DNA of 62,931 nt, the filler included, from Reticulomyxa filosa (taxonomy: Eukaryota; Protista; Foraminifera), in the NCBI GenBank assembly GCA_000512085.1. It is 22 parts of 22 records of this genome, joined end to end, with 100 filler letters (N's around TTAATTAATTAA, not from the genome) between each part and the next. Parts side by side here need not be neighbours in the genome. Positions count along the whole stretch, not along the records: positions 56,898 to 59,249 come from ASPP01025075.1; 21 more parts are not named here. One strand, 5' to 3'. The notes beneath the pieces were generated by a model. That model was not told where the DNA came from. It was given only the letters and a program-made list of their open reading frames with translations, and did not search any database. Below, in pieces: positions 55,471 to 59,349 of this stretch. Both the position numbers and the translations under genes were made by a program. Every line of letters starts with the position of its first letter. The first letter of the stretch is position 1.

Positions 55471-55789
55471 TTTTTTATTTATTTTATTTATTTATAGGAA
55501 TTTGATTCAAACAAAATCATTATAATAATTTATTTTTTTAAAAAAAAAAAAAAAAGTAATGTTTATATAATTTCTGTCGTGTGCGCATATTACATGCAAC
55601 ACACTAAAAAAAAAAACAAANNNNNNNNNNNNNNNNNNNNNNNNNNNNNNNNNNNNNNNNNNNNTTAATTAATTAANNNNNNNNNNNNNNNNNNNNNNNN
55701 NNNNNNNNNNNNNNNNNNNNTGAGATATTTGTTTTGCAATATTTTCTTTCTGCGAATTCAATTTATAATATTCTCTCTAAAAAAACCAT

Positions 55790-56797
55790 AAGAAAAGACT
55801 TGAAAGAATGCAAATAATTACAATGTGCAGGATACTTGGAGTGATGCAATCGACAGCGTACGATACATTAAATGTGATATCGCAGATGTCAATATTGGAA
55901 TTTCGAAGACAACAAGAAGAAGTTAAATTATATTACAAATGTATCCGATTCAAGTAAGAAGTTTCCGGATCACAATTTGACAATGGCATATCAATTGTGG
56001 AGAAGCAATCATAAGATGGAAATTGTTTACATTATCAAGAGCATATATTTATGCATCTGAAGTTGGAGTTCCGACGTAAGGCCTGACCAATATCCACACC
56101 AGAGCAAATTGCCAATGCAGATCGCACGACTACCACATCCAACCAAGTCTCCATTTGAGAGATGGATGAAACCAACACAATAAGGGATATTAGATGAAAG
56201 AACAACTGTAATATTTGCGAATTGTAGTTGCAAGACAGATCCAGGAATTGGAGCTTATAGCCAAGACTGAAAATGTTGTCAAAATATTGAAAGACAATGA
56301 TATCCAGATTGGATATTCAATGGTGAAAGTGGAACCATTTGACAAAGGCAAATCAAGGCCAAAATCGCATTTCAAGCAATGCAGGAAATGCTACAGATTG
56401 AACCATATTGTTCGTGAATGTCCAAAAAAAAGTAAAATATGTAAGTTTACTGATTGTCAAATCATGAAGCGGCAAAATGCCGACCAAGAATGACCCAAGC
56501 AAACACAAATGTGTACTATGTCGAAAGCAGTACCCAAGCGATTCATTGCAATGTGGACCTCAGAAACCAAAGAAGATGACCAATAGAAAGAAGAATAAAA
56601 GAATAATAAAGATCAAATGCCGCAGACAAGAGATCTTATGCTGATGAAATCTCACTGCCAAAACGTGAATTAGCAGATATTAAGTCAGCATTCCAGCAAT
56701 TACAATCCTTATTTTAATCAATTAACCCAAAGTTGATGCAGATTGTGATTGGGAATCGATCAAGAGATGAAATCAACGTTGCAAATACCAATATGCA
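55790..56797 (+). mobile_element. Decayed non-LTR retrotransposon ORF1 (gag-like, CCHC knuckles)
   Basis: IQIGYSMVKVEPF..FKQCRKCYRLNHIVRECP (CX2CX4HX4C), followed by degenerate knuckles ICKF and HKCVLCRKQYPSDSLQC. Multiple stops and frameshifts. Confidence 0.72.
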
Positions 56798-56897
56798 NNN
56801 NNNNNNNNNNNNNNNNNNNNNNNNNNNNNNNNNNNNNNNNNTTAATTAATTAANNNNNNNNNNNNNNNNNNNNNNNNNNNNNNNNNNNNNNNNNNNN

Positions 56898-57334
56898 AAT
56901 GTCCAAGCTATTGCTATGTGATATTCAAACTCTTTCCATTTCATTCTCAATGATGACTTTGAACGATTTAGTATTTCTACTTCAACATCAATATTCATCT
57001 CTTTAATGTGTGTTTCAATCATTGTAAGAATTTCAAAGTTTCGTGTTTGAAACGATTCAAGGTTGTTATGATCAAAATTTTTTTCATAAAAAAATACTAA
57101 ATACCCACAAGATACTCCAGGAATGGCAAGTCGTTTTTGTACACATCCAGATAATGCTACACCATACATGTCATAATGTTGGATCGTTTCTTTGTGTCTT
57201 TCCAATAAACTGTTCACAAGTTCATTGGCGTATTTGTAGTACAAAGCGACAGCGTCAGAGGAAATCACTTTTCCAAGAGTCTCTTCCAAATAGGTGTGGC
57301 ATTGTGAAATAATCTCTTGCTTTTTGTCAGACAT
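56898..57334 (-). CDS. OAS-like (2'-5' oligoadenylate synthetase / cGAS-DncV-fold) nucleotidyltransferase N-lobe, apparently catalytically inactive; 3' truncated
   Basis: VALSGCVQKRLAIPGVSCGYLVFFY aligns without gaps to the recalled OAS motif [25 protein letters not shown]. It is followed by helix FQTRNFEILTMIETHIKE and strands SSLRMKW..EYHIAIAW (cf. RALSF..VEFDVLPAF). Confidence 0.62.
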
Positions 57335-57533
57335 CTTTTGAATATGTGAGAATATTATGGGTAACGTGTTAGAGTTTTAAAATTCGTTAAAGCGGACGGC
57401 AACCCGTTGTTGCAGTCAACAGTTCATAATATTGTGCTCGCAATGACAGAGAGTTGATATAATATAAACAGAACGCCAAGAGTATGTTTACAAAATTGAT
57501 TTAAAAAGAATTATTCAAAATCCAATTGTACTG

Positions 57534-57832
57534 AGTAGATTGCAAAAAAAACTGTTATACCTATTGCACCACTATGAAGAGAATCGATTTTCCACGAAAA
57601 ATAAACATTTAACCTAATTTTTAAAAATTATCTATTCTTTTAAAAGAACAAATTTTAAAATGACAACCAAAAACAAAAAAACAAATCAAACGCCTAAAAA
57701 AAAGTATTTATATTTAAAAACTACAAAATTTGTAGATATTTTTAAAAATTATGTTCAAATGTTATTTTTCATGGGAAAATTGGTTCTCTTCATAGTGGTG
57801 CCATTTAGGTATGGTTTTTTTTGCAATCTACT
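57534..57832. mobile_element. MITE-like foldback element (~300 bp, ~100-bp imperfect terminal inverted repeats)
   Basis: AGTAGATTGCAAAAAAAAC..ATACCTA..GCACCACTATGAAGAGAA..ATTTTCC..TAATTTTTAAAAAT.ATCTA (57534-57633) is the reverse complement of 57733-57832. No ORF. Confidence 0.85.
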
Positions 57833-58863
57833 ATAATAGCACCTTCTAACAATAAAATTATCATACTGATTAAATCAACTCATGTTAGACTTTGTTTAAT
57901 TTGATTGTAATTGAAAGTTAAATCCTGTCAAGTCAGTGTTCAAAGGGAGCCTTGGAATCTTTTTTTACTCAAAATTCCTTTACTTTTTTGGTTAACTTCT
58001 TCATTCTCTTTATTTTAAACTTTTGTTTTTGTGAAATTTGCCCAAAGGAGTGATTTTTTCTATTATTTTTTGCTGGCTGCACCTCACATCTACACACCAG
58101 TCAACGAGCACTACTCTTTCCATGAATCATTACAAGCTTGGACAAGCATTATGAAGCATACGTATACATAGACTCAATTTGAATACTTAAAGTGGCTCGC
58201 ATTAGCATTTGGCCATTGTTCATCCAATATTTTTTGAAACGTCCATTTTTATATTTCGAGGACACAATGATAACAAGTATCATAATGACATATATTGCCT
58301 TAGTATTACATAAGCAAAAGCATATCGCGGTGTTAGTGATACAGAGGCATCTCAAATGGCTTAAAAAAGTGAGAATTTATGGAGTGAGTGTGTACAGAGA
58401 TTCCAAATGTAAATATTTATTCATTTCGATCATGTGCAATGTTGGATCACACTCCAAGTGCACTCTTTTTAATCACTTTGTTCTTGAGAAGTTGCTCATA
58501 CAAAAAAATTATTATTCCCATTCCTTTTCTACTATTCATTTTTTAATTTTGACATCCATGTCCAAATACAAAAGTTGTTTTGGAAATGTCACAACAGCCA
58601 TTCGTTTTTGAAAGTTTTTTGCTCTTGTTTTGCAAAATAATTACATTAGATAAACTAACTTTTTGTTAAGGATCAAATTTAATGACATACAACTGCGTAA
58701 TGAAAGTAGCCCGTTGTCGTCCTGCAAGCTTGGGAATGGCATCTGCAATTTACAGAAAGAACTGGTCGTTGGAAGTGCACAATTCAGTCCGACCTTTTTT
58801 TTTTCCCTTTCCCCTTTTCAACCTCACCAACAAAATCGTATAAAAAAGATTAAGACAAGGATA

Positions 58864-59206
58864 ATGGGCTTGTGCGGTTCAAATGAGATTGATACATCTT
58901 CTACAAAACGACTTGACGGCAACTCAATAGACAACAGTGAAAAAATGTCAATGCAAAAAAAAACTGACAAAGAAATAAACAAAGTACTGAACAAGATGGA
59001 TCAGCAAAAACACCGGATTAGTTGTAAGTTGATGTTATTAGGCGCAGGCGAAGGCGGCAAGACCACACTGCTGCGGCAAATGAGGCGATTACATGGAGAT
59101 GCCTTCACTGAACGCGAGCTAAGAGATTCCAGGCCAAACATTATTAAAAACGTTGTCGAAGCTATGCGAACCTTGGCTGTGTATAGTGAAATACTGAACG
59201 AATCAG
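58864..59206 (+). CDS. Heterotrimeric G-protein alpha subunit, first exon
   Basis: MGLCGS (myristoylation/palmitoylation-type start) and KLMLLGAGEGGKTTLLRQMRRLHGDAFT...IIKNV. Donor GT at 59207. The true start is 58864, not the ORF-track start at 58663. Confidence 0.92.
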
Positions 59207-59349
59207 GTAAATTTTTTTTTTTTTTTCTTTCCATTCACTTACCCCCCCCNNNNNNNNNNNNNNNNNNNNNNNNNNNNNNNNNNNNNNNNNNNNTTAATTA
59301 ATTAANNNNNNNNNNNNNNNNNNNNNNNNNNNNNNNNNNNNNNNNNNNN

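Follow-up and report, generated by a model that had tools for sequence, protein, structure and literature searches.

What does an oligoadenylate synthetase (OAS) scaffold do without catalysis? OAS-type enzymes are among the few innate-immune modules common to bacteria and animals, and the question is raised here by a gene fragment of the foraminiferan Reticulomyxa filosa, which occupies positions 56,898 to 57,334 of a stretch of 62,931 nucleotides (hereafter the window) drawn from assembly GCA_000512085.1. A preliminary description of this DNA had proposed that the fragment encodes an OAS-like nucleotidyltransferase (NTase) whose catalytic aspartates have all been replaced. The analysis reported below favors the reading that the fragment belongs to an OAS-fold gene family, carries four replaced residues at the catalytic positions, is non-catalytic and is likely a binder, and a probability of roughly 0.55 is attached to this reading as a whole.

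A species-specific family with replaced catalytic residues

Searches with the 145 residues encoded by the fragment returned eight longer R. filosa proteins, the best of which is RFI_05373 (P0002), at 74-78% identity. When 1.84 billion representatives were scanned with phmmer without filters, eight proteins emerged at E ≤ 1e-3 (E 1e-17 to 1e-72), one of them being the window's own 118-residue record. A profile built from 13 members of what is here called subfamily A gathered 27 proteins, all from R. filosa, and a search started from the most divergent relative, P0029, added five further relatives. The total stands at 33 gene models including that of the window, 27 in subfamily A and six in a sister subfamily B, although the real gene count may be below 33, as many models are incomplete and come from contigs only 0.5-5 kb long. 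No relative outside R. filosa was found by one full phmmer run with the 145-residue query or by word-seeded searches, profile searches included.

The two subfamilies are clearly related and clearly distinct. Their profiles align with hhalign at a probability of 100 and E 6.1e-47 over 318 columns, and an IQ-TREE phylogeny of 28 rows, from which five rows without the N-lobe were left out (P0023, P0026, P0027, P0028 and P0034), splits them with 100/100 support. The window protein is the sister of RFI_05373 in this tree (100/97), within a clade that also holds P0012, P0011 and P0003.

Two-metal catalysis in Pol-beta-type NTases needs three carboxylates. The complete catalytic set, G[GS] plus three carboxylates, is found in two members of subfamily B, P0029 (RFI_15844) and P0032 (RFI_14454), which carry a canonical G-G-S, a D-G-D eleven residues on, and a later D placed in an E-[YF]-D-[IL]-L-V-A-F strand. 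It is absent from the window protein. At the same columns, and in exact register in both the alignment and the hhalign comparison, subfamily A reads S-G-C, C-G-Y and H. The change of the GS serine to Cys, of DxD to CxY and of the third Asp to His, which had been proposed from the isolated fragment with the motif register otherwise kept, is thereby borne out against paralogues that have GGS, DGD and D at precisely those columns. The same replacements extend from the window protein to nearly all of its 26 subfamily relatives. Cys occupies the GS-serine column in 22 of 23 subfamily-A members (P0002 has His) and the first-Asp column in 22 of 23 (P0002 has Tyr); Tyr stands at the second Asp in 21 of 23 (P0012 has Asn and P0024 His), and His at the third in all 25. 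The Gly of the P-loop and the Lys three residues past the serine position are kept in 23 of 23.

Conservation of 90% is reached by only 82 of the 294 well-filled subfamily-A columns, so that the four replaced positions count among the constrained ones, and the conservation of the motif among paralogues that are otherwise 42-78% identical suggests purifying selection on the family. A simple loss of function does not account for strict conservation of Cys/Cys/Tyr/His in place of drift. This pattern invites a reading in which the site has been repurposed rather than emptied: Cys64, Cys76, Tyr78 and His139 would line the old pocket and bind zinc or iron, or form a redox-sensitive Cys pair, giving a different chemistry or a metal or redox switch. 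The four replacements are classic soft-metal or redox ligands and are kept in 21-25 of 23-25 members, when drift would be expected if the site were simply dead; the invariant P-loop Gly and Lys fit such a site as well, and the degenerate members of subfamily B differ, with N/S-I/N in P0031 and I-G-D/S in P0030. The positions lie, however, on core strands that are conserved anyway, the exceptions in P0002, P0012 and P0024 break the proposed ligand set, and to our knowledge no metal or redox site of the Cys-Cys-Tyr-His kind has a precedent on an OAS scaffold. A repurposed site is accordingly considered improbable. Equally little weight is given to its broader form, in which a repertoire of some 30 genes would combine two canonical members with a subfamily whose Cys-Cys-Tyr-His center senses metal or redox state, or catalyzes, in the service of nucleic-acid surveillance.

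Degeneration is not confined to subfamily A. P0031 and P0033 carry G-G-C, N-S-[IA] and N at the catalytic columns, P0030 carries G-G-N, I-G-D with an insertion, and S, and the tree does not unite the canonical P0029 and P0032 in a single clade. Because the canonical residues are ancestral for the NTase superfamily, the family has lost them at least three times: in subfamily A, in P0030 and in P0031/P0033. The preliminary description had envisaged a loss separate from that in animals, with active and inactive paralogues to be sought in foraminifera. Paralogues with and without the canonical residues are present in R. filosa, and since both kinds occur in one species, the comparison of sequences places the loss within the R. 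filosa lineage, separate from the losses in OASL and OAS3 domain I of animals.

Predicted fold and kinship with OAS

The fold of the family was predicted from P0005, a subfamily-A member of 345 residues. Its AlphaFold2 model, built on a 13-sequence alignment, has a mean predicted local distance difference test score (pLDDT) of 77.5 and a predicted template modeling score (pTM) of 0.77. Foldseek matched it to 49 PDB structures at E ≤ 1e-3, and all 46 of the 49 that were listed are bilobed NTases: Pla1 and other poly(A) polymerases (PAP), OAS1/2/3, NF90-NF45, CdnC/CdnD/CdnE, cGAS, GLD-2 and Utp22. On re-alignment with VIA-align, from which the best 50 alignments were listed, the top four places went to OAS1 (PDB 4rwo, 4rwn and 4ig8 among them; Z 19.4, 19.2, 18.9 and 18.2), with a root-mean-square deviation (rmsd) of 3.2-3.4 Å over 278-282 residues; the first of them covers 281 of the 345 residues at 3.4 Å and 14% identity. 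Yeast PAP scores Z 17.6, OASL (4xq7) and OAS3 domain I (4s3n) 17.3 each, OAS2 (9h1z) 16.9, Utp22 15.4-15.7, ILF3/ILF2 15.4, CdnC 15.1, GLD-2 14.9 and NF90-NF45 14.5. The PAP alignments are looser (rmsd 4.2-5.2 Å over 262-270 residues; Foldseek E 1.1e-5 for Pla1), and DZF structures overall reach Z 14.3-15.4, four to five units under OAS1. cGAS was matched by Foldseek only, at E 2e-4 and lower in the ranking, and lies outside the best 50 VIA-align alignments.

Language-model comparisons lead to the same family. Queried with P0011, which shares the window protein's clade, the ESM Atlas ranked OAS1_C clusters highest in features (0.96, with 196 of 256 in common), and an OAS cluster headed its structure search as well (TM 0.69/0.65), at a score sufficient for assigning a name. 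DZF, CBASS cyclase and Mab-21 clusters rank under OAS1_C, and the same holds for P0029. The models thus assign the family a bilobed NTase fold of the PAP/OAS1 type, with OAS1 as the best structural match, and the OAS-type fold claimed at the outset stands. OAS-like fold and homology can be held with high confidence. A library of viral structures gave 0 matches at E ≤ 1e-3 and no sign of a viral origin, its best structured entry being a squirrelpox OAS at E 0.017.

Sequence comparison reaches OAS by way of the sister subfamily. A subfamily-B profile searched against PDB sequences found human OAS2 at E 6.5e-4 (21.9 bits), ahead of a next match at E 0.44; the OAS2 match is made up of four stretches, which in each of the two OAS2 domains cover GGS...D-x-D and a conserved helix of the C-lobe. 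P0029 alone had OAS2 as its sole match, at a non-significant E of 0.27. The PADLOC models of CBASS oligonucleotide cyclases, bacterial relatives of OAS, matched the two canonical proteins weakly (P0029 at E 0.0027 and 0.0061; P0032 at E 5.2e-4 to 1.6e-3) and did not match the fragment, P0005, P0011, P0002 or P0030. The link from subfamily A to OAS is therefore transitive, through the hhalign comparison of A with B. The window fragment itself has no Pfam, NCBIfam or PADLOC family at E ≤ 10, and among PDB sequences it met just two Cas9 fusion chains at E 3.7, judged to be chance. Neither it, which lacks the C-lobe, nor 20 relatives matched OAS1_C (PF10421) or NTP_transf_2 at E ≤ 1 to 10, and no DZF_N, DZF_C, Mab-21 or PAP match was found in Pfam.

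For the fragment, a second AlphaFold2 model (145 residues, 28-sequence alignment) reached pLDDT 83.0 and pTM 0.70, with three helices, a strand at residues 56-62, a short helix, a strand at 76-83, a long helix and three strands in succession. An exhaustive VIA search of 48,161 chains gave GLD-2 at Z 10.9, OAS1 (4rwn_A) at 10.4 over 133 residues with 17% identity, URT1 at 10.4 and TUT1 at 10.3, and all of the best 50 matches are entries that we take to be NTase-fold proteins. Foldseek placed cGAS first (E 8.8e-4) and gave OAS3 domain I at E 2.2e-3.

These scores bear on another explanation, namely that the family is a housekeeping pseudo-NTase of RNA metabolism, comparable to NF45/NF90, which are DZF proteins, or to an inactive partner of PAP or another terminal nucleotidyltransferase, and has no link to defense. 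DZF proteins serve as housekeeping factors, are conserved and present in few copies, and work as heterodimers; DZF domains are likewise without catalytic residues. Yeast PAP, ILF3/ILF2, GLD-2 and NF90-NF45 are all strong structural matches, and DZF clusters occur among the language-model neighbors of P0011 and P0029 (0.93-0.94). Yet OAS1 scores two to five Z units higher, with longer and tighter alignments, OAS1_C clusters come first in both Atlas searches, and the only significant PDB sequence match of the sister subfamily is OAS2. Factors of the housekeeping kind are, moreover, normally single-copy and conserved across eukaryotes, as opposed to 33 gene models in one species. A best match to DZF or PAP, which the preliminary description had named as evidence to the contrary, was not found (OAS1 19.4, PAP 17.6, DZF 15.4), and a housekeeping origin is regarded as quite unlikely.

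The reading frame, its assembly piece and the gene models

The window protein is read from an ATG at 57334 on the minus strand, through 145 sense codons that stay open down to base 56900, with bases 56899-56898 supplying two bases of codon 146. Earlier this frame had been described as running to a contig edge. The frame is open and both peptides quoted from it are present letter for letter, but the edge is an internal joint: instead of a stop codon, the frame ends at a run of N from 56897 downwards that contains TTAATTAATTAA at 56842-56853. The 12-mer has 21 occurrences across the window, where 0.14 would be expected. The window (1-62931) consists of 22 short assembly pieces, each about 1.0 to 8.1 kb long, which are joined through 21 linkers of N run, TTAATTAATTAA and N run at positions including 3725, 6330, 8279 ... 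60767. Since the pieces so chained are unrelated, gene neighborhood across a linker is without meaning. The OAS-like frame belongs to a piece of 2.35 kb (56898-59249), from which the 3′ two-thirds of the gene are absent, and tblastn with all family proteins found no second match, and hence no remainder of the gene, elsewhere in the window. The features are listed in Table 1.

Table 1. Coordinates of the OAS-like gene fragment, its key positions and the joint that interrupts it.
Feature	Position	Strand	Basis
5′ part of OAS-like NTase-fold gene, subfamily A (codons 1-145 plus two bases)	56898..57334	-	Open frame, paralogues, AlphaFold2 model
Strand 1 and P-loop equivalent, YGVALSGCVQK (residues 57-67)	57134..57166	-	Alignment to subfamily B GGS-LQK
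Cys64 at GS serine position; Gly63 and Lys67 retained	57143-57145	-	Paralogue alignment
Strand 2, SCGYLVFFY (residues 75-83)	57086..57112	-	D-G-D in P0029 and P0032 at same columns
Cys76 at first DxD metal-ligand position	57107-57109	-	Paralogue alignment
Tyr78 at second DxD metal-ligand position	57101-57103	-	Paralogue alignment
Last N-lobe strand, EYHIAIAWT (residues 137-145)	56900..56926	-	D in P0029 and P0032
His139 at third catalytic Asp position	56918-56920	-	Paralogue alignment
Joint (N run, TTAATTAATTAA, N run) interrupting the OAS-like gene	56798..56897		DNA past joint is an unrelated piece

The encoded fragment spans the N-terminal helices and the entire sheet of the NTase N-lobe. 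The absence of stops had been taken to fit a functional gene, a statement that holds for the 145 codons covered, the rest of the gene lying beyond the piece. With a local GC content of 0.31, about 7.8% of random codons are stops and the chance of 145 open codons is near 1e-5; because of this probability, and because the translation matches eight proteins, the frame is beyond chance. These figures also enter the argument over whether, in this highly repetitive genome, the window copy and perhaps much of subfamily A are duplicates that do not function or are decaying. The assembly cuts the gene short, which limits any judgment to its 145 open codons; many relatives are partial, on the short contigs mentioned above; the gene models P0014, P0018 and P0024 miss internal conserved segments; and the window protein is short of three residues after strand 2 that are present in most relatives. 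An open frame of this length at 31% GC is nevertheless expected only about once in 1e5, the fragment retains each of the 34 columns in which nine family members are identical, and the motif is conserved among much-diverged paralogues. Decay of the window copy is therefore judged unlikely, though less so than the two alternatives discussed above.

The full-length members of the family (312-364 residues) are standalone proteins with no fusion to ubiquitin-like or extra OAS domains. Three genes, RFI_05369, RFI_05372 and RFI_05373, have neighboring locus tags and the same longest-contig size of 9663 bases, which suggests a tandem cluster. Four long subfamily-A members (P0007, P0008, P0009 and P0027) share a C-terminal extension of about 250-300 residues past the core, with conserved blocks and no Pfam match, which may represent an effector or a partner domain. 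The clade of the window protein (P0002, P0003, P0011 and P0012) seems to be without this extension; past its core, at residues of about 360-423, P0002 carries tandem repeats of some 20 residues (FDFDSAAN...ENGQQ). P0027 is labeled 'Casein kinase II regulatory subunit' in one source, can be aligned to the family's C-lobe and C-terminal extension, and has no match to the beta subunit of casein kinase II in Pfam at E ≤ 10; its name is probably an annotation error.

On its piece the OAS-like frame has a single companion, the first part of a gene for a G-protein alpha subunit at 58864-59249 (+; PF00503, E 1.6e-17), which is divergent from it and likewise cut by the piece end. On the neighboring piece (55721-56797), an open reading frame at 56215-56493 (+), seen in the list of such frames, shows a C-x2-C-x4-H-x4-C pattern (CRKCYRLNHIVREC) that resembles a CCHC zinc knuckle, a type known from retroelement Gag proteins.

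A putative non-catalytic binder and its counterparts

Without the serine and the three metal-binding aspartates, the window protein would make no 2′-5′ oligoadenylates or other magnesium-dependent product. Loss of nucleotide transfer is predicted because the three carboxylates are absent, and the lack of NTase activity is accordingly rated as very probable. The scaffold, its Gly-rich turn and the Lys are kept, as is, in the full-length relatives, the C-lobe helix common to OAS. The protein would then act by non-catalytic binding of nucleic acid or nucleotide, and such a binder could serve as a sensor, a decoy or a regulator, possibly of the canonical paralogues. This role is put forward because the P-loop Gly and Lys are retained, the cores are basic, and precedents exist in OASL, OAS3 domain I and OAS2 domain I, non-catalytic binders of double-stranded RNA, and in NF45/NF90, which bind nucleotides and likewise do not catalyze; the odds that the protein works as a binder of nucleic acid or nucleotide are estimated as even. 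A function in antiviral defense is more doubtful, being proposed only because the family is kin to OAS and CD-NTases and has undergone a species-specific, partly tandem expansion.

Several observations weigh against the reading of the family as OAS-fold, non-catalytic binders. No member scanned, whether the fragment or the 20 relatives, has a threshold match in Pfam, and the subfamily-A profile found no OAS among PDB sequences, its one match (E 0.067) being irrelevant; OAS membership rests on predicted structure, language-model similarity and one weak profile match of the sister subfamily. For the P0005 model, PAP lies just about two Z units under OAS1. The fragment taken alone does not separate OAS from cGAS, terminal uridylyltransferases and GLD-2, for which the VIA scores fall within one Z unit: its model identifies an NTase N-lobe and not which family it belongs to, and the OAS call rests on the full-length relatives for that reason. 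The closest paralogue of the window gene, P0002, has His and Tyr at both Cys positions, which are thus not absolutely fixed, and some family copies may be decaying or mis-predicted. Charge, finally, is a weak argument. The cores have isoelectric points (pI) of about 9 to 9.7, but basic cores are frequent in AT-rich genomes, and the window fragment is itself acidic (pI 5.9).

In print, the OAS-like genes of R. filosa are at most implicit. OAS-like homologues have been reported in 8 of 12 eukaryotic supergroups, and the supplementary hmmscan table of that survey includes four R. filosa proteins (Culbertson and Levin, 2023; PMC10732462). One of them, EukProt P025644, gives the same weak matches as P0032 (PTPS at 219-327 and DUF6033 at 172-237) and is very probably that protein; a second has NTP_transf_2 at 70-116 and may be P0029, in which D-G-D occupies 114-116. 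Neither Reticulomyxa nor foraminifera occurs in the main text of the survey (0 occurrences each), and the main text and table do not describe a 27-member subfamily without catalytic residues. The text available for PMC10400998 holds nothing on Rhizaria. Literature searches found no paper pairing Reticulomyxa with oligoadenylate and nothing on protist OAS pseudo-enzymes, and the large non-catalytic subfamily was not found described.

Among known systems, the DZF proteins NF45/NF90 (4at7, 4atb, 9gtz) are pseudo-NTases that share the bilobed fold and lack catalytic residues, at lower structural scores than OAS1, and their DZF domains still bind ATP, CTP and UTP according to the titles of PDB entries. 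Catalytic OAS1 is the best structural match of P0005 (Z 18.9-19.4 for 4rwo, 4rwn and 4ig8, over 278-281 of its 345 residues), and P0029 and P0032 share the GGS, DxD and D of OAS2 domain II with the same 11-residue spacing; the window protein differs from OAS1 in having neither the serine nor any of the three aspartates, and the identity of P0005 to it is 14%.

The closest counterparts are the non-catalytic OAS domains of animals (OASL, OAS3 domain I and OAS2 domain I). By the models they have the same bilobed NTase and OAS1_C-type fold, and in them, as in R. filosa subfamily A, the catalytic carboxylates are lost and the scaffold retained; OAS3 domain I and OASL bind double-stranded RNA, as PDB titles and abstracts state. 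The R. filosa proteins stand apart from them in their identity of about 13%, the absence of a Pfam OAS1_C match, an independent loss of the catalytic residues and a conserved Cys/Cys/Tyr/His set. They also differ in number, with 27 copies in subfamily A against one to a few in animals, and in standing alone, as far as the full-length members show. A foraminiferan has thus duplicated an OAS-like gene about thirty times, with most copies carrying a conserved alternative set of residues, and has independently paralleled the pseudo-enzymes of animals (OASL, OAS2 domain I and OAS3 domain I). Within this one species, P0029 and P0032 with their canonical residues and the Cys/Tyr/His forms provide a natural pair for asking what an OAS scaffold does without catalysis.

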